Assembly: GCA_002421005.1 (NCBI GenBank)
Contig: DIJC01000023.1
Coordinates: forward strand, 37,735-69,734
Reading direction: 5' to 3'
DNA from: Enterobacteriaceae bacterium UBA5654
GTDB lineage: Bacteria > Pseudomonadota > Gammaproteobacteria > Enterobacterales > Enterobacteriaceae
DNA: 32,000 nt
Shown in pieces: positions 3,818 through 25,988 of this stretch; position 1 is the first letter of the stretch, and each line of letters starts with the position of its first letter. The notes under the pieces were generated by a model that worked only from the letters and a program-made list of their open reading frames with translations, had not been told where the DNA came from and ran no database searches. A program made the translations under genes and the position numbers.

Positions 3818-5529
3818 TGAGCGAAAAACATCCAGGCCCACTGGTGGTCGAAGGCAAACTGGTCGATGCCGAGCGCATGAAGCTGGAAAGCAACTACCTG
3901 CGTGGCACCATTGCCGAAGATTTAAATGACGGTCTGACCGGCGGCTTCAAAGGCGATAACTTCCTGCTGATCCGCTTTCACGGGATGTATCAGCAGGATG
4001 ACCGCGATATCCGCGCCGAACGCGCCGAGCAGAAACTGGAACCGCGCCATGCGATGATGCTGCGCTGCCGTCTGCCAGGTGGGGTGATCACCACCAAACA
4101 GTGGCAGGCGATGGATACATTCGCCGACGACAACACCCTTTACGGCAGTATTCGCCTGACTAACCGTCAGACGTTTCAGTTCCACGGCATTCTGAAGAAG
4201 CACGTCAAACCGGTACACCAGTTGCTGCATTCGGTCGGGCTGGATGCGCTGGCGACCGCCAACGACGTAAACCGTAACGTGCTGTGTACGTCCAACCCGT
4301 ATGAGTCTGAGTTACACGCGCAAGCCTACGAGTGGGCGAAAAAAATCTCCGAGCATCTGCTGCCGCGCACCCGCGCCTATGCGGAGATCTGGCTCGATCA
4401 GGAAAAAGTCGCCACGACCGATGAAGAGCCGATCCTCGGTCAGACCTATCTGCCGCGTAAGTTTAAAACCACGGTGGTGATCCCGCCGCAGAACGATATC
4501 GATCTGCACGCCAACGACATGAACTTTGTCGCGGTGGCGGAGAACGGCAAACTGGTCGGCTTCAACCTGCTGGTGGGCGGCGGTCTTTCCATTGAGCACG
4601 GCAACAAAAAAACCTACGCCCGTACCGCAAGCGAGTTTGGTTATCTGCCGCTGGAGCACACGCTGGCGGTGGCGGAAGCGGTGGTCACCACCCAGCGCGA
4701 CTGGGGCAACCGTACCGACCGTAAAAACGCCAAAACCAAATACACGCTGGAACGCGTGGGCGTTGAGACATTTAAAGCGGAAGTGGAACGCCGCGCGGGC
4801 ATTACGTTCGAACCGATCCGCCCGTATGAGTTCACCGGGCGCGGGGATCGCATTGGCTGGGTAAAAGGCATCGACAATAAATGGCACCTGACGCTGTTTA
4901 TCGAGAACGGTCGTATTCTGGATTATCCGGGTCGTCCGCTGAAAACCGGGCTGCTGGAGATCGCCAAAGTCCACAAAGGCGAGTTCCGCATTACCGCTAA
5001 CCAGAACCTGATTGTTGCTGGCGTCCCCGACAGCCAGAAGAACAAAATCGAAAAGCTGGCCCGCGAGCATGGCCTGATGAACGCAGTGACGCCGCAGCGT
5101 GAAAACTCTATGGCCTGCGTGTCGTTCCCCACCTGCCCGCTGGCGATGGCGGAAGCGGAACGTTTTCTGCCGTCGTTCACCGATAAAGTGGAAACGATTC
5201 TGGAAAAACACGGTATTCCTGACGAGCATATTGTGATGCGCGTCACCGGCTGCCCGAACGGCTGCGGACGCGCGATGCTGGCCGAGCTGGGGCTGATCGG
5301 CAAAGCGCCGGGTCGCTACAATGTGCATCTTGGCGGCAACCGCATCGGTACGCGCATTCCGCGCATGTACCGGGAAAATATTACCGAACCCGAAATTCTC
5401 GACACTATCGACGAGTTAGTCGGGCGCTGGGCAAAAGAGCGCGAAGCGGGTGAAGGCTTCGGCGATTTTACGGTGCGTGCGGGCATCGTGCGCCCGGTGC
5501 TCGATCCCGCCAGGGATTTATGGGACTAA
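3817..5529 (+). CDS. cysI: Sulfite reductase [NADPH] hemoprotein beta component
   Basis: 570-aa [18 protein letters not shown]... with the siroheme/4Fe-4S cysteine motifs ([25 protein letters not shown]). Confidence 0.96.
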
Positions 5530-6362: not shown

Positions 6363-9062
6363 TTATCCCGTTAAGCCCGCGCGTTTACTGTAATAGCGGG
6401 CTTCTCCGCTATTTGATACCAGCACAATCTGTCCTTTCGGGCGATGATACTTTTGTCGGAACTGCTCCAGTTTTTCTTCATCGGGGAGGTTGAATTCCCC
6501 GGCATTTTTTCGCCACCACGAGATCCGCACCGACAACCGGCTCATTTCCCAACGGAAATCGCCCTCTGTGACCGCAGGATGCAGTGTGCCTTCTTCATCC
6601 TGCCAGGCGAGATAGAGATCCACGCTCTCTTCGCCCAGACGAGTAGAAAACTCCCTGTCGTTACTCCATAAAAAGTCGCTGGCTTCCCGATCGTAGCCTT
6701 TATCATGACGCAGCAGATTCTGCGCGGCGACGGAGCGTTGGCTAAGCACTTTGCCGAATGCTAAATCGGAAAGCGTTTGCAGCCCAGCGGGGGCGGGCAG
6801 GGTTTGCTCATAAACGCCGTCTACCAGGTGGCGGGCATTTTCCGGCATCCGAATTTCACCGTATTGTCGCAGCAGAGCCTGCGTCCGCCACAGACAGGCA
6901 TGATCGGCATACACATAGCCAGTGCCGCGAAGCTCCTGGCCCAGCCATCCCGGTTTCGCCTGCGCCTGCCACTCTGGGGCTAAAATGTGCAATACTGGCG
7001 GCTGGCGCTCATCAGGCAGCGCCGTTTTACGCTCACCGTGAGCATCGCGAATATGCCGCTGTAATCTCCCGGCGCGCTGGATCAGTAAATCAATCGGGGC
7101 CAGATCGGAGATCATCCAGTCAAAATCGAGATCGAGACTTTGTTCAACAACCTGCGTGGCGATAAGTACCTTTCCCTTACGCCCTGAAGCGGGCGCGTGA
7201 TGACCGAACCACTCCAGCGTTTTATTCTCAATCGCCAGTCGGTCGGCGAAGGCAAACCGGCTATGAAACAACAAAAGATCCTGTTCAGGAATGAGGCCTT
7301 CCTCCAGTAGTTGCTGAAATATTTCCCGCGCATCATCCACGGTATTACGGATCCAACACACGCATTGCCCGGCTTCCACCACGCGGTAAATAGTGTCGAT
7401 CGCCTCGCTTCGCTGCTGAAGCCAGTTAATCGCAACGCTGCGCCGTACTTCAGGGCGCGTTGCCAGCGGCTGTTCTGCCAGTCCTGCGGCGGACAGATGG
7501 GTCAGCCACGGATAATCTGCCTCACTGCTGGCATCCGTGCTGGAAAATCCTGCGCCCTCATTGAATGCAATGAGCAATCTTTCCCGCAGCGTGGCGGGGA
7601 GGGTGGCGCTCAGAATAATCGCGCTGCCGCCCTGCGAGGCATGAAAGCGCAACAGTCCCTCCAGCAATTTCACCATATAGCCGTCGTAAGCGTGGACTTC
7701 GTCCAGCAACAGAATTTTGCCGCACATGCCTAACAGCCGGAGCGACTGATGGCGAAAAGGCATGACCGCCATCAGTAGCTGGTCGAGCGTGCCGACCCCC
7801 ACTTCTGCCAGCAGCGCTTTTTTACGTGAGTCGGCAAACCAGGCGTGGCATTCACTGGTCGCGCTGTCGTCATCGCGCGCGTAGTTATCACCCATCGTCT
7901 CTGACGGCTGCCAGATCGAGTGACGAAAAGCGTCCGACATTTCCCGTCCGCCGTGCGCCAGAAGCAATGAAGGTCGGGCACCATCGGCAAACAGTGCGTG
8001 GTAAGCCTCTGCCAGCCGTTTATACATGGCATTGGCAGTGGCCATTGTCGGCAACCCCACATAAAGCCCATGCCCTTTGTCAGCGGACATCAGGCGATGA
8101 GCAAGGATCAGCGCGGCTTCTGTTTTTCCTGCTCCTGTGACGTCTTCCAGTATCACGAGCTGCGGTCCGGGCGCAGAAATATCAAGCGTACTCGCCCGCT
8201 GCTGAAGGGGCGTCAGCGTCTGGATAAAAGGGAAAAGCGCATGGTGATCGATATACTGGCTGCGGGGCGATACCGGCGGCAGGCTGGCAAGCGCCCGTCG
8301 GGCTTTTTCGCAGGCCAGCGGCCAGTAATCCTTAAGCGGCATTGGCGTGCTAACCAGCGGAAACATTTCCTGATCCGAACCCATCCAGTCTGCCAGCGTC
8401 ATTATTCCGGCGAAAATCCAGCTTTGCTGTTTTAATTTCTTTTTGGCTGCTTTTGTTTTCCATGATTCAGGAAGCTGGAAAGGAAATAGCTTTATTAAGT
8501 CCTCAATGTAATGACCGGCTGCGACAATATCCTCATCAGTGAAAGCGAGTGAACTACCGTTTTTAAGTGTGTTGGGGGGGATGCCATGATGTCCGGTGCT
8601 CATTAACATCCAGGTATTTAATGCGCTCTTGAATTTTTCACGATTTTCTGGAGCGGGATAAGGGAGGATATTATTTTCGCCGTCGATCCATGCTTCTAAT
8701 AATAATTCCCATAAATAGAACCCCAGTGAATCATGTCTCTCAAGGGCTGCCACGCCGCTGACAGGCGGTACCAGCGGTGAATCCGGGAACGCAGCGTATT
8801 GCTGAAATCCTCTGGCAAATTTGCCGATGTCATGGCATGCAAAAAGCCAGGCGATATAATTTCCGACATCCTCACTGCTAATGTCACATTCAATCAATGT
8901 ATTTCTACAATTAAAAATATTGGCTTCGGTTATATAATATCCACAAGCGGCGACATCAAGGCAATGATATGGCAGTAAATGATAGGGATCATTGTTCTCG
9001 CTGGTTTCTTTATTTGTTTTACCCCAGTAACGGAGATAGTCAGGGATTATTATTGGTGCCAT
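6363..9062 (-). CDS. cas3: Type I-E Cas3 nuclease/helicase
   Basis: 899-aa ORF. The N-terminus has the HD nuclease signature (YWGK..., HCLDVAA, HDIGKF, TGHHG). It also has a DEAD/DEAH helicase core (GAGKTEA, LLDEVHAYD). Divergent from cas8e. Confidence 0.96.
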   Translation of the reverse strand: MAPIIIPDYLRYWGKTNKETSENNDPYHLLPYHCLDVAACGYYITEANIFNCRNTLIECDISSEDVGNYIAWLFACHDIGKFARGFQQYAAFPDSPLVPPVSGVAALERHDSLGFYLWELLLEAWIDGENNILPYPAPENREKFKSALNTWMLMSTGHHGIPPNTLKNGSSLAFTDEDIVAAGHYIEDLIKLFPFQLPESWKTKAAKKKLKQQSWIFAGIMTLADWMGSDQEMFPLVSTPMPLKDYWPLACEKARRALASLPPVSPRSQYIDHHALFPFIQTLTPLQQRASTLDISAPGPQLVILEDVTGAGKTEAALILAHRLMSADKGHGLYVGLPTMATANAMYKRLAEAYHALFADGARPSLLLAHGGREMSDAFRHSIWQPSETMGDNYARDDDSATSECHAWFADSRKKALLAEVGVGTLDQLLMAVMPFRHQSLRLLGMCGKILLLDEVHAYDGYMVKLLEGLLRFHASQGGSAIILSATLPATLRERLLIAFNEGAGFSSTDASSEADYPWLTHLSAAGLAEQPLATRPEVRRSVAINWLQQRSEAIDTIYRVVEAGQCVCWIRNTVDDAREIFQQLLEEGLIPEQDLLLFHSRFAFADRLAIENKTLEWFGHHAPASGRKGKVLIATQVVEQSLDLDFDWMISDLAPIDLLIQRAGRLQRHIRDAHGERKTALPDERQPPVLHILAPEWQAQAKPGWLGQELRGTGYVYADHACLWRTQALLRQYGEIRMPENARHLVDGVYEQTLPAPAGLQTLSDLAFGKVLSQRSVAAQNLLRHDKGYDREASDFLWSNDREFSTRLGEESVDLYLAWQDEEGTLHPAVTEGDFRWEMSRLSVRISWWRKNAGEFNLPDEEKLEQFRQKYHRPKGQIVLVSNSGEARYYSKRAGLTG

Positions 9063-9150
9063 ATTTTAATTCTCTGAAAAGGGGATATAGTAGAAGGGAT
9101 TTTAAAGCGAGAAAGGAAAAGTGGGCAGAGATTTTTGCAACCCAATCGAA

Positions 9151-9229
9151 AGAATTATCCCCGCTGACGCGGGGAACGTCGTATGAGGCGACCAGGTAGC
9201 CGGTTCATCCCCGCCGATGCAAGGAACAT
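9151..9229 (-). CRISPR. Degenerate two-repeat mini-array (psiR1 - 21-nt psiS - psiR2), candidate regulatory crRNA-like gene
   Basis: Minus strand: ATGTTCCTTGCATCGGCGGGGATGAACCG | GCTACCTGGTCGCCTCATACG | ACGTTCCCCGCGTCAGCGGGGATAATTCT. The repeats are 21/29 and 22/29 identical to the array repeat. The hairpin is kept in both (via G-U wobbles in psiR1) and the 5' handle is 7/8. Confidence 0.75.
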
Positions 9230-9279
9230 ACAGGCAAGAGAATAGCATAAGTCGTTAAATACTGTGTTCTGATTATTTT

Positions 9280-9303
9280 ACTATGAGGTATCCATGTAGC
9301 CTT
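9280..9303 (-). promoter_or_regulatory. Putative Cascade/psi-crRNA binding site 1 (AAG PAM + 15/21 match to psiS)
   Basis: Minus strand AAG|GCTACATGGATACCTCATAGT. Identical to psiS at positions 1-5, 7-9 and 13-19. Confidence 0.55.
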
Positions 9304-9327
9304 GTTTGATGGAGAGCATGTAGCCTT
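9304..9327 (-). promoter_or_regulatory. Putative Cascade/psi-crRNA binding site 2 (AAG PAM + seed match)
   Basis: Minus strand AAG|GCTACATGCTCTCCATCAAAC. Identical to psiS at positions 1-5, 7-8, 10-11, 13-14 and 19. It directly abuts site 1 (24-nt units). Confidence 0.45.
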
Positions 9328-9336
9328 AAATATACT
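9306..9336 (+). promoter_or_regulatory. Candidate sigma70-like promoter reading toward cas8e
   Basis: TTGATG (9306-9311), 19-nt spacer, TATACT (9331-9336). The spacer length is suboptimal. Hexamer inspection only. Confidence 0.25.
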
Positions 9337-9456
9337 GCTTTACACCACAAAAATGATGCTGCTATCATCGCCTTCAACAGAAAAACCCCAAGGTTAGGGT
9401 GGTTTCTGGATAAGGAACGTCCAACCCTGGGGCAGCCTGAAGAACTGCATCTTACT

Positions 9457-9579
9457 ATGGAATGGGCGTCCGGGTCACCGGTTACAAGGGCAAGGTTTCT
9501 TATGTTAATTAATCTCGCGCTTAGCCACACAGAAATAGTGCTGCTTTTGGCTTTTTTCTGTTCTGGACTGAAGCGGTAA
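9457..9579 (+). CDS. Hypothetical small hydrophobic peptide (40 aa; 25 aa if started at ATG 9502)
   Basis: MEWASGSPVTRARFLMLINLALSHTEIVLLLAFFCSGLKR. The internal ATG at 9502 has AAGG 6 nt upstream. Too short for statistical support; found by hand, not in the ORF track. Confidence 0.15.
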   Translation: MEWASGSPVTRARFLMLINLALSHTEIVLLLAFFCSGLKR

Positions 9580-9584
9580 CGTCC

Positions 9585-9608
9585 AGTTGGCTCCTTCGGG
9601 AGCCAACT
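9585..9608 (+). other. Perfect 10-bp hairpin with TTCG loop in the cas8e 5' leader
   Basis: AGTTGGCTCC-TTCG-GGAGCCAACT. No T-tract on either side. Confidence 0.6.
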
Positions 9609-9673
9609 TCCTGGGTGTAGTTCCAGCCCTCACTAACTGATTTTGCTGCACTCCCCTATACAGGAGTAACTCT

Positions 9674-11239
9674 ATGGATTTAACCAGGGAAAAATGGTTA
9701 CCTGTTTTCCTCTCAGACGGCAAGAAAACCAAAATCTCGCTCTACGATCTGTTCGATGAGTCGGTGCGGGATGTCGCCTGGCCCCGGCCCGACTTTCAGG
9801 GGGACGGATGGAAAATGTTAATTGGCCTTCTGCAATGCTCTATAGCCCCAGAGGACGAAGACGACTGGGAGGAGGTTTGGCAAGAGGGCATTGAGCCAAA
9901 ACGTTGGACAGAGGCTTTGCAGACTCTTTCGCCTGCCCTACAGTTCGGCGAACAAAAACCCGCCTTTTTGCAAAGCTTTGATCCTCTTGATAGTGAATAC
10001 ATCTCTGTCGCCAGCCTGCTCATTGATGCGCCTGGTGGTAACACGCTCAAACTGAATAAAGATCATTTTATTAAAAGGGGATGCGTTGAGCGCATTTGTC
10101 CTCATTGTGCGGTTATTGCACTGTTCTCCGTTCAGACCAACTCGCCCGCAGGCGGAGCCGGGTATCGCGTCGGAATGCGCGGCGGTGGACCACTTACTAC
10201 GCTGGTGGTGCCTGAAGATGAAGCCAGGTTTCCGCTGTGGAAAAAACTGTGGCTGAACGTTCTGCCACAGGACAATCTCCCCGGCGTCGCACAGTTTCCG
10301 CTTATCTTCCCGTGGCTTGCGCCCACGAAAACCAGTGAAAAACCGGGTAACGTTGTCACCCCGGAAAATGCCCACCCGTTGCAGGCGTACTGGGGAATGC
10401 CCCGGCGTATTGAACTGGATTTCACCCATACCGAAGCCGGAAAGTGCGATTTATGCGGCGAGCTCAATGATTCACTGCTGAGCCAAATGCGCACGAAAAA
10501 TTATGGCGTGCAGTATGAGGGCTGGCGACATCCGTTTTCTCCGTATCGGCAGGCATTAAAAGATGCCTCCGCGCCATGGCTTGCCCTAAAAGGGCAACCG
10601 GGCGGCCTGAGCTATAAAGACTGGCTGGGACTGATCATGGAGCGCGAAGACAAATTTAACAAAATGCAGCCCGCGAAGGTGGTGCAGGCAGCCGGGCGGC
10701 GGAAAAATCTGGGGCTGTGGTGTTTTGCCTGGGATATGGATAATGCCAAAGCGCGCTGCTGGTATCAGCATCGTATACCGCTGTTCAACCTTCCGCGCTC
10801 CACACAGTTTATCGATACGGTTTCTCTGATGGTTTTGCTGGCTTCCGAAGCGCTGTCGCTCCTGCGAAATGCGCTGAAAAGCGCCAGATTTGAAGCGCCA
10901 AAAGAGGCTAAGGTCGATTTTAGCATGGTAGATATTGCCTTCTGGCAGGAGACCGAACCTTCTTTCCGCACATTACTGAATATCCTGGCTAACGATCCGC
11001 AGCGTAAAGAGGTGTTTACCCGCAAGGCATTACGCCAGTGGGAACGCGAGTTACATAGCTATCTGTTTCGCGTTTTTGACCGTGAAGAGCTGACCGATCC
11101 AGATTGCCCCGACTCTATCCTGTTACGCCAAATGAATGCCCGACGTGGGCTGGAAAATAGCTATCGTAAAAATAAAGCGCTTAAGGATGTACTGGCGCTG
11201 GCTGAAGAACAGAAGGAAGCTAAACATGCAGAATCTTGA
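9674..11239 (+). CDS. cas8e: Cascade large subunit Cas8e (Cse1/CasA)
   Basis: 521-aa ORF MDLTREKWLPV..., first gene of the Cascade operon with I-E gene order. SD GGAG lies 8 nt upstream. Confidence 0.92.
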   Translation: MDLTREKWLPVFLSDGKKTKISLYDLFDESVRDVAWPRPDFQGDGWKMLIGLLQCSIAPEDEDDWEEVWQEGIEPKRWTEALQTLSPALQFGEQKPAFLQSFDPLDSEYISVASLLIDAPGGNTLKLNKDHFIKRGCVERICPHCAVIALFSVQTNSPAGGAGYRVGMRGGGPLTTLVVPEDEARFPLWKKLWLNVLPQDNLPGVAQFPLIFPWLAPTKTSEKPGNVVTPENAHPLQAYWGMPRRIELDFTHTEAGKCDLCGELNDSLLSQMRTKNYGVQYEGWRHPFSPYRQALKDASAPWLALKGQPGGLSYKDWLGLIMEREDKFNKMQPAKVVQAAGRRKNLGLWCFAWDMDNAKARCWYQHRIPLFNLPRSTQFIDTVSLMVLLASEALSLLRNALKSARFEAPKEAKVDFSMVDIAFWQETEPSFRTLLNILANDPQRKEVFTRKALRQWERELHSYLFRVFDREELTDPDCPDSILLRQMNARRGLENSYRKNKALKDVLALAEEQKEAKHAES

Positions 11240-11828
11240 TACTGCTACGCTGCGCAGAATCACCCATCCGCAGGCGCAAAAAGCGCTGGTTGACTGGTTT
11301 GCCGTATTGTCCGAGCGCTATGCCGACGAAGAGGGCAAACGCATTAACGGGCGGGCCTGGCGGGCAGAGCTAAAAAGAATGGAGCCGCCTTACGGCGTGA
11401 TGATGTGCGAGGGTTTTCACGCGCTGTACCAGCAACTGAAAGGCCCTATGTCATTGCGTCCGCTGGATAAAATGGCGCTGGCGCTGTTTGTCAGCGTCGC
11501 CGCTCATATTAAGAGCAATAAAGAAAAGCTTAGCTTTGCGGCACAGCTGGGGGAAAAACTCAACGGATCAACATCCTGCGTTTCTTCCCTGCGCTTTGAA
11601 CGGCTGCAAAAAGCGAGCGATCCAGACACGTTTTGCCAGTTACTGATTCAGGCAGTGAAAATCCGTGGTAGCGAGGGAGTGAACGTCCTGTCGCTGGCTG
11701 ACAGCATTTTCCTGTGGATGGAAGAGTGGCAAAGACGGGAGAACCATGAACCAGAAACCAGCCACCCTTTTGATCGCAACCGCATTCGTTGGGCAAGTGA
11801 ATATATTTCCACGTCTCATGGCAACTAA
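11226..11828 (+). CDS. cse2: Cascade small subunit Cse2 (Cas11/CasB)
   Basis: The track ORF begins at 11136. The ATG at 11226 (MQNLDTATLRR...) is preceded by AAGGAAG and overlaps the cas8e stop by 14 nt, which is typical coupling. 200 aa from that start. Confidence 0.85.
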   Translation: MQNLDTATLRRITHPQAQKALVDWFAVLSERYADEEGKRINGRAWRAELKRMEPPYGVMMCEGFHALYQQLKGPMSLRPLDKMALALFVSVAAHIKSNKEKLSFAAQLGEKLNGSTSCVSSLRFERLQKASDPDTFCQLLIQAVKIRGSEGVNVLSLADSIFLWMEEWQRRENHEPETSHPFDRNRIRWASEYISTSHGN

Positions 11829-11849
11829 TTATTTTAGAGGGATTTAATA

Positions 11850-12908
11850 ATGACTACCTTTATTCAACTGCATTTATTGACCGCTTACGCTCCCGCCAAC
11901 CTTAACCGCGATGATTCTGGCAGACCCAAAACGGCCTATATGGGCGGCGTTGAACGCTTGCGCGTTTCGTCGCAAAGCCTGAAGCGTGCCTGGCGTGTGT
12001 CTGAAACATTTGAATATGCGATGGATGGCTACATTGGCAAGCGCACCCGCCGAATCGGTGTAGATTATGTCTTTCGCCCGATGACCAGCGCAGGCATTGC
12101 CGAAAAAACGGCGAAGGCAGCAGCGGAGAAAATTGCCGCTCAGTTCGGCAAAGTAAAAAATGACAAAAACGCGCCAGTCGAGAAAAACCTGGAAATTGAA
12201 CAGATTGTTCATGTCAGCCAGCATGAAATCGATCTGATTAAAAGCCTTGTGGCGACGCTGATTGCTGAAAATCGCGAGCCAACGGACAACGAAGTAAAAC
12301 TGCTACGCAAAGAGAAACGCAGCGTCGACATGGCGATGTTTGGTCGGATGCTGGCGTCATCGCCGGAGTTCAATGTAGAGGCCGCCTGCCAGGTTTCCCA
12401 TGCGCTGGGCGTGAGCGCCGTCACCATCGAAAGTGATTTCTTCACGGCTGTAGACGATCTGAATAACAAAGAGGAGGATGCCGGTTCTGGTCATCTGGGC
12501 GAGCAGGGCTTTGCTTCCGCACTCTTCTATACCTATATCTGCATCAGTCGCGATCTGCTGGTGGAAAATCTGGGCGGCGATGAAGAGCTGGCTAAACGCG
12601 CGATTGCGGCGTTGACCGAAACGGCGCTGACCGTATCGCCGACCGGTAAACAAAATAGCTTCGCCTCCCGCGCCTATGCCACCTACGCGCTGGCGGAAAG
12701 GGGTAACAGACAACCGCGCTCGCTGGCAGCGGCATTCTTCCAGCCGATACGCGATCCCGACCAGATTGCGGCGGCCATCGCCTGTTTAAAACAGCAGCGT
12801 GACAGCTTCGATCGCGTCTACGGGGACTGTACTGACGATCATAATGAATTGAACGTTCAGAAAGGTGAAGGATCACTGGCGGAATTACTGGCCTTTGTCA
12901 GCCAGTAA
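11850..12908 (+). CDS. cas7: Cascade backbone subunit Cas7 (Cse4/CasC)
   Basis: 352-aa ORF MTTFIQLHLLTAYAPANLNRDDSGRPK..., the characteristic Cas7e N-terminus. Confidence 0.93.
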   Translation: MTTFIQLHLLTAYAPANLNRDDSGRPKTAYMGGVERLRVSSQSLKRAWRVSETFEYAMDGYIGKRTRRIGVDYVFRPMTSAGIAEKTAKAAAEKIAAQFGKVKNDKNAPVEKNLEIEQIVHVSQHEIDLIKSLVATLIAENREPTDNEVKLLRKEKRSVDMAMFGRMLASSPEFNVEAACQVSHALGVSAVTIESDFFTAVDDLNNKEEDAGSGHLGEQGFASALFYTYICISRDLLVENLGGDEELAKRAIAALTETALTVSPTGKQNSFASRAYATYALAERGNRQPRSLAAAFFQPIRDPDQIAAAIACLKQQRDSFDRVYGDCTDDHNELNVQKGEGSLAELLAFVSQ

Positions 12909-12917
12909 GGATGAACA

Positions 12918-13643
12918 ATGAAGCAATATCTGGTTTTTCAGCTGTACGCGCCGCTGGCGTCGTGGGGGGAGGAAGCGCCCGGCGAGATGCGCCACTCTGC
13001 CACGGTACCGACGCGTTCAGCGTTGCTGGGGCTGCTCGCCGCTGCGCTGGGCGTCCGTCGGGATGAAGAAGAGCGGTTGAATAACATCAACCAGCACTAC
13101 CACCTGGCGGTGCACGCGCTGTCTGCGCAGGATCGCTGGCTGCGGGATTATCACACCGTCAGCGCTCCGCGTGAGAATAAAAAATATCGCTATTACACCC
13201 GGCGTGATGAGCTATGCCATGCGCCGGATGAGGTCAGTACGCTGATCTCACAGCGTGAATATCGCTGCGATGGTTACTGGCACGTGGCCATCAGTGCTAT
13301 GCCGGGAGCACCATATTCACCTGAAGAACTGCGTGATGCGCTGTTAGCGCCGCATTTCCCGCTCTATCTGGGACGAAAATCCTGCCCGTTGGCGCTGCCG
13401 CTGGCACCGCGTTTAATCACCGGTACGTTAAAAGAGGTACTGGTACAGGCGTCGCAGGAAATCACTGCCACAGAGCTGACCGGTTTTACGCTCAACGAAG
13501 GAATGTGCTACTGGGACGATCCTGCTGAAACTAGCCTGGCCTGGCAGCAGCAACAGCGCAGCAATAATCAGCCGTTAAGCCGCCAGCGCTGGCAGTTTGG
13601 CAGTTATACCCGTTTCAGCGGTCCGCTACAGGGGGAAGCATGA
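12918..13643 (+). CDS. cas5: Cascade subunit Cas5e (CasD)
   Basis: 241-aa ORF MKQYLVFQLYAPLASWGE..., the Cas5e N-terminal motif. Its end overlaps the cas6e start (ATGA). Confidence 0.92.
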   Translation: MKQYLVFQLYAPLASWGEEAPGEMRHSATVPTRSALLGLLAAALGVRRDEEERLNNINQHYHLAVHALSAQDRWLRDYHTVSAPRENKKYRYYTRRDELCHAPDEVSTLISQREYRCDGYWHVAISAMPGAPYSPEELRDALLAPHFPLYLGRKSCPLALPLAPRLITGTLKEVLVQASQEITATELTGFTLNEGMCYWDDPAETSLAWQQQQRSNNQPLSRQRWQFGSYTRFSGPLQGEA

Positions 13644-14347
13644 TGTACCTGTCTCGCATTCAACTCCTGTTCAATAAACTGCAACCGGAGATGTTAGAAA
13701 AATGGGACTTGGCACAACCTTACGCCAGTCACCAGTGGTTATGGCAACTCTTCCCCGAACAGGAAAAGCGCCATTTTCTGTTCCGTCAGGAGGAACGTGG
13801 AGGCTTTTTTGTACTGTCGGCGACGCCGCCGCTAACGCAACATGCGCTGTTTAATGTTGCGACAAAACCGTTTCAACCGCAGTTAGTCGATGGTATGGCG
13901 CTTGATTTCCAGCTACGCGCTAATCCGGTCATCACCCGTAACGATAAGCGCAGTGATGTGATGATGAATGCAAAGCATCAGGCGAAGATGGACGGCGTAC
14001 CAAAGAGTCAGTGGTGGGAGCTACAGCAGCAGGCGGCGCAGTCATGGCTGGAAAGGCAGGGGGCGCAGCATGGTTTTCGTCTCCTCGTGCCAGACACTGA
14101 TGTTTTTGCCGAGTGGGCGGGTGAAGAGTCTACCCAGACGCAGGCGACGGGTAGATGTGTAACAGCCTACCAGCAGCATCGTTTTGTCCGTAAAACAGGC
14201 GAAGCGCCGATCGTATTCAGCAGCGTCGATTTTGCAGGAAGTTTATGTATCACCGATGCTTCGTTGTTTGAACAGGCGCTGTTTTCAGGGCTGGGTAAAA
14301 GCAAAGCACTAGGCTGCGGTATGCTGATGGTGAAAAGGAGGCGCTAA
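13640..14347 (+). CDS. cas6e: CRISPR repeat endoribonuclease Cas6e (Cse3/CasE)
   Basis: 235-aa ORF MMYLSRIQL... ending ...GLGKSKALGCGMLMV (glycine-rich C-terminal loop). Position matches the I-E operon order. Confidence 0.92.
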   Translation: MMYLSRIQLLFNKLQPEMLEKWDLAQPYASHQWLWQLFPEQEKRHFLFRQEERGGFFVLSATPPLTQHALFNVATKPFQPQLVDGMALDFQLRANPVITRNDKRSDVMMNAKHQAKMDGVPKSQWWELQQQAAQSWLERQGAQHGFRLLVPDTDVFAEWAGEESTQTQATGRCVTAYQQHRFVRKTGEAPIVFSSVDFAGSLCITDASLFEQALFSGLGKSKALGCGMLMVKRRR

Positions 14348-15657: not shown

Positions 15658-18600
15658 GTGTTCCCCGCGCGAGCGGGGATAAACCGCTCATCCTCTGCCA
15701 GCGAAGATGCTCGGGCCAGTGTTCCCCGCGCGAGCGGGGATAAACCGAACTTCCCCCACATCCCCGCCGATAGGGTTGGGTGTTCCCCGCGCGAGCGGGG
15801 ATAAACCGCGCTTTCGAATAACTAACATTCCCGCTTGGCGGTGTTCCCCGCGCGAGCGGGGATAAACCGGGACAATATTATCTGAATTATTATTTAATTG
15901 TGTGTTCCCCGCGCGAGCGGGGATAAACCCATATGCCGTCGGCAGCGGCTGTTCGTGCCTACGTGTTCCCCGCGCGAGCGGGGATAAACCGCCCACTGTG
16001 TTTTCTCCATATAGCTGGCGCTCGTGTTCCCCGCGCGAGCGGGGATAAACCGGTAATCCCGGCCCTGGCGTCGCTGTTATCAGACGTGTTCCCCGCGCGA
16101 GCGGGGATAAACCGGAATCACGGTGGATGAGATAGCCCGGCTGGTGGTGTTCCCCGCGCGAGCGGGGATAAACCGCAACATGGCCTCAACGTCAGTTAGT
16201 GGCAGCAGTGTTCCCCGCGCGAGCGGAGATAAACCGGTGGCGATGCTACTGGCGGTGCTGGAGTGGGGGTGTTCCCCGCGCGAGCGGGGATAAACCGACG
16301 ACACAGCGAATTCTGTGCGGACGTATCGAGTGTTCCCCGCGCGAGCGGGGATAAACCGCACAGGCGGACGCGGTTAAACGTGGCGAGCTGGTGTTCCCCG
16401 CGCGAGCGGGGATAAACCGCGTTCCGTGGGTCACTAACTCAATTTTTGGGAGTGTTCCCCGCGCGAGCGGGGATAAACCGTACAGTGAGATTGCCACCAA
16501 CATGGTTTTTGAGTGTTCCCCGCGCGAGCGGGGATAAACCGCTGGGCAGCATTGAAACCAGCCTGACCGTTAAGTGTTCCCCGCGCGAGCGGGGATAAAC
16601 CGCTGGTACTTTCTTTGAATCTATTATGGGAGATGTGTTCCCCGCGCGAGCGGGGATAAACCGGATTATTTATGAAACGTATTATTATTGGTTCTGTGTT
16701 CCCCGCGCGAGCGGGGATAAACCGTTATCAATCCCGTTCAAATCATCAGAACTGATGTGTTCCCCGCGCGAGCGGGGATAAACCTCGCAACCGTTGCGCC
16801 CGTCATTACGACTCTGGGTGTTCCCCGCGCGAGCGGGGATAAACCGCAGGCCCTTCAGATGGTGCCAGGGCTTTCATTGTGTTCCCCGCGCGAGCGGGGA
16901 TAAACCGAAAACGGACTCGTCCTGAGTTGCGCTATAAAAGTGTTCCCCGCGCGAGCGGGGATAAACCGCGAACAATTCAGCGCGGGCAGCGCATCAGAGA
17001 GTGTTCCCCGCGCGAGCGGGGATAAACCGTGTTGCAGAACACGTTCCCGCACCTCAATGCAGTGTTCCCCGCGCGAGCGGGGATAAACCGGGAGCCGGGA
17101 AAACTGGCTTGCTGCATGGGCTGTGTTCCCCGCGTGAGCGGGGATAAACCGATTGGCAGGACGTAACCGGAACACCACCAACGGTGTTCCCCGCGCGAGC
17201 GGGGATAAACCGGATTATTTTCAATATTCAAAGTCGGCTTGTCAGTGTTCCCCGCGCGAGCGGGGATAAACCGTAATGTAAAAAATAAGTTAATTTTCTA
17301 TATTTGTGTTCCCCGCGCGAGCGGGGATAAACCGCCGGATAAACCGCCAACTATAAACATTAAAACGTGTTCCCCGCGCGAGCGGGGATAAACCGGATAT
17401 TGATTATTGAAATCAACTTGAATCACCGTGTTCCCCGCGCGAGCGGGGATAAACCGTTTTACGGCCAGGCGAAGAAACGCACTGGCGAGTGTTCCCCGCG
17501 CGAGCGGGGATAAACCGCCCAGATCGAGCTGGTAGAGTTCGCGCCACACGTGTTCCCCGCGCGAGCGGGGATAAACCGTAAATCCGGTACGTTTTTAGGC
17601 TGGCCTGAGCGTGTTCCCCGCGCGAGCGGGGATAAACCGTCCCTTTGGTACGACAGTTGTAGGTGTTGACAGTGTTCCCCGCGCGAGCGGGGATAAACCG
17701 CCGTTGTAGATGTAGTCAACGTAACGACGCTGGTGTTCCCCGCGCGAGCGGGGATAAACCGTTCCTTCACGGAGTTAGCAAGCTTATTACTTAGTGTTCC
17801 CCGCGCGAGCGGGGATAAACCGCGCAGGCGGTTACGGCTACTGCGCCTTCGACTGTGTTCCCCGCGCGAGCGGGGATAAACCGTTTTTGAGGCTGACACG
17901 GCTGACACAGCTGACGTGTTCCCCGCGTGAGCGGGGATAAACCGAGATGGTGTACCAGCTGGCGCTGGATACGTTCGTGTTCCCCGCGCGAGCGGGGATA
18001 AACCGTTCGTTTAATTGATCAATCATAAAAACCTCTGGTGTTCCCCGCGCGAGCGGGGATAAACCGGAACAATATTATCTGAATTATTATTTAATTGTGT
18101 GTTCCCCGCGCGAGCGGGGATAAACCGCGCTTTCGAATAACTAACATTCCCGCTTGGCGGTGTTCCCCGCGCGAGCGGGGATAAACCGCCGGTAGCAAAA
18201 TCAATGCGACGACGGGTAAGGTGTTCCCCGCGCGAGCGGGGATAAACCGCGGATGAATGTCATCATCATCAGGGTAGATACGTGTTCCCCGCGCGAGCGG
18301 GGATAAACCGATCATCCATCATCCACTGGAGCGCCTCACGGGGTGTTCCCCGCGCGAGCGGGGATAAACCGCCACCGAAAACAATCCCCGCTAATGCGGG
18401 GAAGTGTTCCCCGCGCGAGCGGGGATAAACCGATATGGAGGTTAAACACTGGGAGCCTGTTTTTGTGTTCCCCGCGCGAGCGGGGATAAACCGCAGCCTG
18501 TGCGCGATTGGTATCCCACCCGTATGTGTTCCCCGCGCGAGCGGGGATAAACCGTTCATCCAGCACCTGCTGCTGGCGAGTGGTGAGTGTTCCCCGCGCC

Positions 18601-18676
18601 AACGGGGATAAACCGGCCAGTACCTGTGGCAATGGAGTTTTTCACAAGTGTTCCCCGCCTCAGCAGGAACAACCCA
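15658..18676 (+). CRISPR. Type I-E CRISPR array, 50 repeats / 49 spacers
   Basis: Repeats start at 15658 with a 61-nt period, shifted +1 after the 33-nt spacer 16053-16085, and the last starts at 18648. Same 29-nt repeat as array 1. The penultimate (18587) and last (18648) repeats are degenerate. The leader-proximal end is next to cas2. Confidence 0.98.
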
Positions 18677-25277: not shown

Positions 25278-25988
25278 ATGGCAGCAACTTTTCCGGGCGT
25301 TTGCGCCGTGGTTCCGGCAGCCGGTTTTGGCCGCCGTATGCAAACGGAGTGTCCGAAACAATACCTCTCAATTGGTAACAAAACGATTCTTGAACACGCG
25401 GTGGCCGCGCTTCTGGCGCACCCTCGCGTGCAAAACGTGATTATCGCCATTACACCCGGCGACACGCGTTTTCAGCAATTACCGCTGGCAAATCATCCGC
25501 ACATCACCGTGGTAGACGGCGGCAGCGAGCGCGCCGATTCCGTCCTTGCTGGGCTTAAAGCCGCAGGCGACGTTGAATGGGTGCTGGTGCATGACGCCGC
25601 GCGTCCCTGCTTGTGTCAGGATGATTTAGACCGTCTGCTGCGTCTGAGTGAAACCAGCCGCGTGGGCGGCATTCTGGCCGCGCCGGTGCGCGACACCATG
25701 AAGCGCGGCGAGCCGGGTAAATCTGCGATCGCCCATACGGTGGACCGCAACGATCTCTGGCACGCCCTGACGCCGCAATTTTTCCCGCGAGAGCTTCTCA
25801 CTGCCTGCCTGACGCGCGCGCTCCACGAAGGCGCGACGATCACCGACGAAGCCTCCGCGCTGGAATACTGCGGTTTTCATCCCGAACTGATCCCCGGCCG
25901 CGCGGATAATATCAAAGTCACCCGCCCGGAAGATCTGGCGCTCGCCGAATTTTATCTCACCCGCTTTCATCCTCAGGAGCAGACCTAA
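25278..25988 (+). CDS. ispD: 2-C-methyl-D-erythritol 4-phosphate cytidylyltransferase
   Basis: 236-aa ORF ([12 protein letters not shown]..., [10 protein letters not shown]). Confidence 0.95.

Follow-up and report, generated by a model that had tools for sequence, protein, structure and literature searches.

Why should a short, degenerate CRISPR lie between cas3 and cas8e, apart from the arrays of its own locus? The question is raised by a stretch of 32,000 nucleotides from Enterobacteriaceae bacterium UBA5654 (contig DIJC01000023.1), hereafter called the window, which holds a complete type I-E system, Cas6e included, as found by a Pfam search of the window proteins. In the space between cas3 and cas8e, two diverged copies of the CRISPR repeat (psiR1 and psiR2) enclose a single guide (psiS). 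We consider it quite probable, on the basis of sequence comparison, that this element is creR, which would give rise to a Cas-regulating, CRISPR RNA (crRNA)-like RNA from a degenerate two-repeat type I-E mini-CRISPR. The evidence comes from two predicted target sites of the guide in front of cas8e, from relatives in which guide and target co-vary, and from a prophage array that carries a similar guide.

Structure of the Mini-CRISPR

Read on the minus strand, the element consists of psiR1 ATGTTCCTTGCATCGGCGGGGATGAACCG (9229 to 9201), which agrees with the array repeat GTGTTCCCCGCGCGAGCGGGGATAAACCG at 21 of 29 positions, the 21-nt guide psiS GCTACCTGGTCGCCTCATACG (9200 to 9180), and psiR2 ACGTTCCCCGCGTCAGCGGGGATAATTCT (9179 to 9151), which agrees at 22 of 29 positions and retains an intact hairpin, CCCCGCG/CGCGGGG. 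The last 8 nt of psiR1, ATGAACCG (9208–9201), correspond to the future 5′ handle and match the array repeat at 7/8 positions, the first 21 nt of psiR2 (9179–9159) correspond to the future 3′ handle, and the psiR2 tail, ATAATTCT, is diverged (5/8) and T-rich; the psiR2 hairpin together with this tail was called terminator-like in a scan. The psiR1 stem, CCUUGC/GCGGGG, contains two G-U pairs, and this pairing is possible in minus-strand RNA only. The earlier note on this DNA, which was made from the letters alone, had reported these sequences, coordinates and identities as well as the strand dependence of the G-U pairs, and all were confirmed. The minimum-energy RNA fold of the putative transcript 9234 to 9130 contains both repeat hairpins. 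Because the position of the Cas6e cut in I-E repeats is known, the mature CreR RNA is predicted to be 50 nt long (9208 to 9159, minus strand), with an 8-nt handle, the 21-nt psiS and a 21-nt 3′ hairpin.

The resemblance of psiR1 and psiR2 to the array repeat is not due to chance, because matches of at least 21/29 are expected 0.007 times in 64,000 positions and, apart from the two arrays, neither strand of the window has another position with 19/29 or more. The highest remaining match (18/29, at 25912–25884) was dismissed as chance. With 7–8 differences per 29 nt of repeat, a 21-nt spacer and a single unit, the element also does not have the properties of an adaptive type I-E array.

Predicted Operators and Promoters

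The decisive feature, and as far as sequence can tell the key evidence for the creR interpretation, was absent from the earlier note: two sites that match psiS, each next to an AAG, the canonical I-E protospacer adjacent motif (PAM). Operator B (9303–9280, minus strand) comprises the PAM at 9303–9301 and the protospacer GCTACATGGATACCTCATAGT, which is identical to psiS at 15/21 positions (1–5, 7–9 and 13–19), and operator A (9327–9304, minus strand) comprises the PAM at 9327–9325 and the protospacer GCTACATGCTCTCCATCAAAC, identical at 12/21 positions (1–5, 7, 8, 10, 11, 13, 14 and 19). The two putative operators adjoin directly and are situated 50–98 nt upstream of the mini-array on the same strand, and when psiS-like sites were sought throughout the window, no other match had a valid PAM. 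Both have full seed matches (positions 1–5 and 7–8) and a mismatch at position 6, the guide position that is unpaired (flipped out) in I-E Cascade. The seed score of the better site, operator A, was reached by 0 of 2000 shuffles.

Operators A and B are bordered on one side by an extended −10 element that abuts psiR1, and on the other by a promoter-like site that faces cas8e. The former, TGcTATTCT (9247–9239, minus strand), would start creR at about 9231–9233, just before psiR1, a prediction made because the element is conserved there: in 12 of 16 loci, TGnTAnnnT begins at a distance of 12–21 nt upstream from psiR1, at a per-locus chance of 0.022 (binomial P = 2e-17, assuming uniform composition and counting lineages that are not all independent). 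The candidate cas8e promoter (Pcas8e), TTTACA and TGcTATCAT separated by 18 nt (9339–9368, plus strand), matches the consensus at 10/12 positions in addition to the TG, with its −35 situated 11 nt past the operator A PAM. The geometry is matched in loci L012, L061, L073 and L083 of the set described below, in which the −35 is a few nt past the PAM. A conserved motif, atcttactatgg, was also considered as Pcas8e and was rejected, owing to the lack of a usable plus-strand −35.

Co-Variation and Conservation in Related Loci

Relatives of the element (L numbers) were obtained from one Cas7-based scan of species-representative genomes, a search of E. coli, strain K-12, a contig of Salmonella enterica subsp. 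houtenae (S. houtenae) and one metagenome pattern scan. In the pattern used for the metagenomes, part of each of the two degenerate repeats was fixed, and the sampling of relatives is modest and in part pattern-biased. It was found that the layout recurs in 13 further type I-E loci. Loci with this layout are those of E. coli (L001 and K-12), Citrobacter portucalensis L002, L075, Scandinavium L004, L008, Pseudescherichia L012 and S. houtenae L121, and, from metagenomes, L061, L073, L083, L098, L100 and L101. The order, always on the strand opposite to cas8e, is an AAG-flanked target, 27–125 nt that include the promoter, psiR1, a short psiS and psiR2.

From one lineage to another, psiS shows no relationship in sequence (examples begin GCTGTCTGACC, TAGATACAGTCT, TAGGAAAGTGC, TTAGTTTATTT, TTAGTAAGGCC, TAAGCAATCGA and TTATTGGTCTT). 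The earlier note had named a psiS of variable length with no matching target as the pattern of a decaying remnant; the relatives have guides of 15–34 nt, clustering at 19–22 nt, and wherever an intact mini-array occurs together with cas genes, an AAG-flanked cognate target is present that co-varies with psiS. When seed positions were compared in a 6 × 6 cross-test, cognate pairs scored 9–10 of 10 and non-cognate pairs at most 7, and 0 of 2000 shuffles reached the observed score at any locus. The mismatch between psiS and target at position 6 is recurrent among the relatives, often with a second one at position 12. The K-12 element has the psiR1 ACCTTCCCTACTTAAGTAGGGATAAACCG and a target consisting of AAG followed by TTATTcGTtTTATTAT. 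For the mini-arrays L058, L071 and L096, from human gut and other metagenomes, neither an AAG target nor a cas3 or cas8e homologue was found in the available flanks; their psiR1 is ATATTCCTTGTAAAAACAGGGATAAACCG and their psiS is 20–21 nt long.

Co-variation can also be followed among close relatives. The window psiS is homologous to that of L101 (18/21) and, by alignment, to that of E. coli L001. In L001 the guide reads GCTGTcTGACC and the target GCTGTaTGACC, in the window the guide reads GCTACcTGGTC and the target GCTACaTG..., and in L101 both the guide and the target read GCTACATGGTA. As these alignments indicate, psiS and its target have changed together within the window's own lineage. L001 and L101 each have one target, which aligns with operator A in the case of L001 and with operator B in the case of L101; the window is alone among these three in having both operators.

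The degenerate repeats are conserved unevenly. In the alignment of the window, L101 and L001, 93% of the columns in the psiR1 3′ stem and handle are invariant, compared to 14–30% in neighbouring intergenic DNA, and the psiR2 hairpin is near-invariant. Over 15 mini-arrays, the handle is 93% conserved, the psiR2 stem 90–97%, and the psiR2 tail 52%. The psiR1 handle and the psiR2 hairpin, which are thus the conserved parts, are also those required in a mature I-E crRNA. The psiR1 stem is free to vary in sequence and yet remains paired through compensatory and G-U changes (16 loci): 92% of cells in this helix are paired, compared to 81.7% in column shuffles, and the covariation score is 0.456, compared to 0.255 in shuffles (reached by 0 of 500). 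Double changes are seen in 17 cells, and 11 U-G cells can pair on the minus strand only, which fits a minus-strand RNA. The conservation of the handle and the psiR2 hairpin in the relatives therefore supports the proposal of the earlier note that a crRNA-like regulatory mini-array similar to CreA/CreR is maintained by selection on the minus strand.

A Prophage Array with a Similar Guide

One pattern scan of viral contigs yielded L117 (IMGVR_UViG_2563367009_000004), which has an array at the end of a prophage (8320–8441) composed of psiR, a 23-nt guide, psiR, a 21-nt guide, psiR and a strong terminator, and adjoining genes for an excisionase (xis), an integrase (int) and tRNA-Arg. Guide 2, GCTACATGGCCGCCTCATACG, is identical to the window psiS at 19/21 positions. 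Guide 1, TAGATACAGTCGTATATCAAATT, shares its first 11 nt with the psiS of Citrobacter-type CreR and matches the operator of that lineage at 18/22 positions. BLAST of the mini-array region against a phage collection returned only a match to a Salmonella genomic contig filed there, and BLAST of the prophage array returned only the terminator/attachment region of P22-like phages and ordinary E. coli CRISPR arrays.

Phage arrays that copy host CreR guides and silence PcasA, the promoter of casA, have been described as 'Cracr' (10.1101/2024.10.29.618823). The L117 array is probably an anti-CRISPR RNA array of this kind, judging from its I-E-like repeats, its guides of 23 and 21 nt that mimic host CreR guides, and the terminator that follows them. 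It differs from creR of the window in that it is encoded by a mobile element beside xis and int and has multiple guides, and its presumed aim is the silencing of host cas genes rather than balance. Because a prophage copies the guide, there is independent evidence that the guide/operator pair of the window matters biologically.

Orientation of cas3

The end of psiR2 is 88 nt from the cas3 ATG (9062), on the same strand, and the earlier note had described the element by its place immediately upstream of cas3. The orientation of the mini-array relative to cas8e and to the target is constant in every locus, whereas cas3 is inverted in the window, L001, L002, L003, L101 and L121 and co-directional in L004, L008, L012, L061 and K-12. 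Inverted cas3 is present in 25 of 5426 complete E. coli genomes and in C. portucalensis, Raoultella terrigena, S. houtenae and one metagenome relative. Therefore, the mini-array is upstream of cas3 because cas3 is inverted, and the link to cas3 is incidental and does not organise the locus.

These observations bear on an alternative interpretation, in which the element is a cis-acting leader of cas3: transcripts from the creR promoter (PcreR) would read through into cas3 and would be attenuated at psiR2 and its tail, or a Cas6e cut would set the 5′ end and the stability of the cas3 mRNA, so that the amount of Cas3 would follow the level of Cas6e/Cascade with no targeting of DNA. The short same-strand distance to cas3 and the terminator-like psiR2 and tail, which is also T-rich in E. 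coli L001, agree with such a role, but in half of the lineages cas3 is co-directional and the element is antisense to its 3′ end, so that a leader function cannot explain the conservation. Nor does it account for the co-varying AAG targets. In addition, the window, L101 and L001 all retain a −10-like hexamer, TA(A/C)AAT, in the stretch from psiR2 to the cas3 ATG, which suggests that cas3 has a promoter of its own. We therefore regard the leader interpretation as quite unlikely as an explanation of the element, although a cis leader role may exist as an addition in the lineages with inverted cas3.

The Region between the Operators and cas8e

The DNA between the operators and cas8e contains further features. 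A small RNA (sRNA)-like element at about 9480–9377 on the minus strand has a −35-like GTGACC (9478–9473), a −10-like TAAGAT (9454–9449), a long hairpin (9432–9386) and a T-run (9385–9381); 59% of its columns are invariant in the window, L101 and L001, and the counterparts in L012, L061 and L004 have compensatory changes and G-U pairs. No conserved open reading frame (ORF) was found in this element, and an Rfam scan of 8900–9800 at E ≤ 10 gave only two matches, to long non-coding RNAs, which were judged to be chance. In the extension of the model considered below, which we regard as rather unlikely, the minus-strand hairpin RNA of 9480–9377 could be a further, previously undescribed component of the control region. 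A 40-aa ORF at 9457–9579 (plus strand), the start of which overlaps a conserved motif, has a hydrophobic C-terminal half, MEWASGSPVTRARFLMLINLALSHTEIVLLLAFFCSGLKR; it was considered as a small toxin and rejected, as the reading frame is unconserved in L001 and L101. About 65 nt before the cas8e ATG there is a hairpin, GTTGGCTCC-TTCG-GGAGCCAAC (9586–9607, plus strand). E. coli L001, L004, L005 and L012 have hairpins of other sequence at the corresponding position, and this suggests that a structure is conserved in the leader of cas8e or at the cas3 end. Directly upstream of cas8e in L008 (Enterobacteriaceae bacterium LSJC7), at about 4700–4760, there is a tandem 9-nt repeat, (CCCATATTG)n. In L121 (3365–3804) and in Raoultella L003 (about 4130–4480), an inserted gene pair for a RelE/HigB-type toxin and an Xre antitoxin separates the mini-array from the inverted cas3.

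A second alternative is that the mini-CRISPR specifies the antitoxin of a CreTA-like addiction module, that a toxin (an RNA or a small peptide) which escaped recognition is encoded between the operators and cas8e and is repressed by CreR-Cascade, such that loss of Cascade would be lethal to the cell, and that regulation of cas genes is secondary. The roughly 300 nt from the operators to cas8e do hold the conserved structured element and the 40-aa hydrophobic ORF, toxin–antitoxin genes are enriched between mini-arrays and cas genes (10.1101/2023.03.03.530964), and RelE/Xre pairs adjoin the mini-array in S. houtenae and Raoultella. However, the ORF is broken in L001 (7 codons) and lacks sequence conservation in L101, and the T-run and G-U pairs place the conserved hairpin on the minus strand, with promoter-like boxes of its own far from the operators, so that Cascade bound at the operators would not be expected to repress it. 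Against the addiction module there are also the lack of any but chance Rfam matches in the scan above and the direct repression of PcasA by the S. enterica element (10.1101/2023.03.10.532045). This alternative is thus very unlikely.

That the element is a non-functional relic in neutral drift (a decaying old or inverted array end, or a failed spacer integration) is hardly credible, since, although psiR1 and psiR2 are only 72–76% identical to the array repeat, a counterpart in Raoultella looks decayed, and some stand-alone repeats have been regarded as sporadic and, in type III loci, as degraded (10.1101/2023.03.03.530964), the decay here is patterned, with handle and stems 90–100% conserved compared to 14–30% in the flanks, and is accompanied by compensatory hairpin changes, a co-varying AAG target, a conserved promoter abutting psiR1 and a copy of the guide in a phage.

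A Model for CreR Function in the Window

We return to creR as the preferred interpretation and propose the following model, in which transcription, processing, binding and repression at the window locus are inferred from orthologous systems. Transcription of creR would start at the extended −10, a few nt before psiR1 and in the direction opposite to cas8e. Cas6e would then cut after the psiR1 and psiR2 hairpins to release the RNA of about 50 nt, with ATGAACCG as its handle, psiS as its guide and the hairpin at its 3′ end; Cas6e processing has been reported to be independent of spacer length (PMC5159557). Following the published CreR model, the RNA would be loaded into a shortened Cascade, in competition with array crRNAs for Cas proteins. 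CreR-Cascade would recognise 9327–9304 and 9303–9280, the two sites with the sequence match, and would act as a roadblock between the divergent promoters, candidate Pcas8e and PcreR. The outcome would be negative feedback on the synthesis of Cascade, and possibly on creR and cas3 as well, which by analogy to S. enterica CreR would relax once crRNAs or anti-CRISPRs titrate Cascade.

Binding in this model would not lead to cutting: because the guide is short and the match partial, the R-loop would not be locked and Cas3 would not cleave. The earlier note had attributed a binding-only function to the 21-nt guide length. This is partly right: 20-nt spacers in E. coli, which give no protection against phage or transformation, still cause trace plasmid loss and retain priming (PMC5159557), and the partial match matters at least equally. 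Probably, both the short guide and the partial match would account for a lack of cleavage.

Several points weigh against the creR model. The psiR1 hairpin is weakened relative to the array repeat (−9.2 compared to −15.2 kcal/mol). The seed scores of the operators are 9 and 8 of 10, and the effective contiguous pairing of 8–9 nt is the weakest between psiS and operator among the loci, compared to 15 consecutive nt in S. enterica and 11–12 in most relatives; the duplication of the operator may compensate for this weak pairing. The operators are upstream of both predicted −35 boxes and overlap no core promoter. The candidate Pcas8e is a consensus match only, it is within a 79-nt segment, also containing operator A, that is missing from L101, and no equivalent with the proper spacing is present in E. 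coli L001; for these reasons, its identity is given as a prediction. The Raoultella L003 counterpart looks decayed beyond recognition, so it appears that the mini-array can be lost. Finally, conservation values computed with the metagenome loci carry a bias, as these loci were retrieved with a pattern in which parts of the repeats were fixed; the homology-derived subset has the same conservation pattern as the full set.

An extension of the model is that, in lineages with inverted cas3, creR and cas3 form one transcription unit diverging from the Cascade operon, so that a single CreR operator, tandem in the window, throttles Cascade, guide and Cas3 together. Cas3 is limiting in E. coli. If true, this would extend CreR feedback to the Cas3 nuclease; at present, we regard it as rather unlikely.

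Genetic Context

The cas3 gene (6363–9062, minus strand, ATG at 9062) encodes a protein with the Pfam Cas3_HD and Cas3 C-terminal domains and is inverted relative to the Cascade operon, in contrast to the co-directional arrangement of K-12. The Cascade operon, cas8e, cse2, cas7, cas5e and cas6e (9674–14347, plus strand; Pfam Cse1, Cse2, Cas7 (CT1975), Cas5 and Cse3/Cas6e), begins with cas8e at 9674–11239, and cas6e is followed on the plus strand by cas1, cas2 and the long array. This operon is presumed to be both the regulated unit and the source of the Cas6e and Cascade that CreR needs. The two I-E arrays (44–1171 and 15658–18676, plus strand) have a common 29-nt repeat, GTGTTCCCCGCGCGAGCGGGGATAAACCG, and are on either side of cysJIH and the cas locus. 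Each array ends in a degenerate terminal repeat (1143–1171, 24/29, and 18648–18676, 21/29), and five consecutive repeats of the first array (654–927) share a G12A variant. An exact-protein look-up of the Cas8e of the window returned no record. The nearest Cas7 relative in the scan of species-representative genomes was that of C. portucalensis (88% identity), and two near-identical contigs reached via CysH have intergenic bases identical to the window at 609 of 611 positions (L113) and at 100% (L114).

Comparison with Known Systems

The earlier note knew of no such element at this position in enterobacterial type I-E loci, a claim of novelty that fails because elements of S. enterica and E. coli were published in 2023 (10.1101/2023.03.10.532045; 10.1101/2023.03.03.530964). 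When tested in E. coli, the I-E CreR of S. enterica caused an 8.6-fold, seed-dependent repression of PcasA that excess crRNA or AcrIE8 relieved, and the plasmid list of that study includes the K-12 element (10.1101/2023.03.10.532045); further S. enterica CreR variants have since been reported (10.1101/2024.10.29.618823). Mini-arrays have been described in about 19% of bacterial I-E loci, transcribed opposite to cas3 and with AAG-flanked targets at the cas8 promoter, and in E. coli a cas3–cas8 mini-array has an AAG-flanked target adjoining Pcas, without an IHF site (10.1101/2023.03.03.530964). Neither the psiS sequences nor the S. enterica creR sequence had a text match in the supplementary files of the key CreR and mini-array papers.

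The element of the window resembles S. enterica CreR in being a degenerate two-repeat mini-CRISPR between cas3 and casA, in which psiR1 keeps the 5′ handle and psiR2 the 3′ hairpin, in the partial match of psiS to an AAG site upstream of casA, and in standing alone with no obvious toxin. The layout of the window, inverted cas3 included, is also that of S. houtenae L121. The psiS sequences of S. enterica CreR and the window, however, are unrelated; S. enterica has one site with 15 consecutive nt, at about 140 nt from the casA ATG, whereas the window has two tandem operators with 8–9 nt, at about 350 nt from the cas8e ATG. In addition, function was demonstrated by experiment for the Salmonella element and is predicted for that of the window.

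The E. coli and K-12 mini-array shares with the window the position and orientation relative to cas8e, the AAG target before cas8e next to Pcas, and tolerance of a mismatch at position 6. It differs in its co-directional cas3, such that its RNA is antisense to the 3′ end of cas3, in a psiS of about 34 nt and in a far more decayed psiR2; the window region is not AT-rich, and it has the additional conserved hairpin element. According to PMC7074321, which cites Pul et al. 2010, a K-12 'anti-Pcas' transcript of 150–200 nt arises just downstream of cas3 and overlaps the cas3 transcript; as placed in that account, it corresponds to the location of the predicted creR promoter of the window.

Two more distant systems resemble creR in their logic. 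CreA of CreTA, from the I-B system of Haloarcula hispanica and I-F analogues (Li et al. 2021), is likewise an RNA from a degenerate mini-CRISPR that guides Cascade to a PAM-flanked, partly matching promoter without cleavage; its defining partner is the toxin gene creT, the promoter of which CreA represses, whereas no conserved toxin candidate was found at the window. In tracr-L autorepression of Cas9 (Workman et al. 2021), a non-canonical guide with a short partial match acts on the system's own promoter and senses the availability of the effector, but the effector is a class 2 single protein, the guide is derived from tracrRNA, and there is no homology to creR.

Implications

Because the CreR concept was published in 2023, what is gained here lies in detail and breadth. 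Particular to the window are the inverted cas3, the tandem double operator, the demonstrable co-variation and the phage mimic, by which one specific host operator is linked to a mimic guide of a prophage. Together, the loci offer roughly a dozen pairs of guide and operator from nature that show compensatory changes, and these pairs should help to define the minimal pairing for repression by Cascade without cutting. The predicted parts of the circuit are the mini-CRISPR, the AAG operator, the promoter abutting psiR1 and the orientation antisense to cas8e, and their recurrence suggests that, in the type I-E loci of enterobacteria, feedback through CreR has been conserved and vertically maintained well beyond one Salmonella strain.

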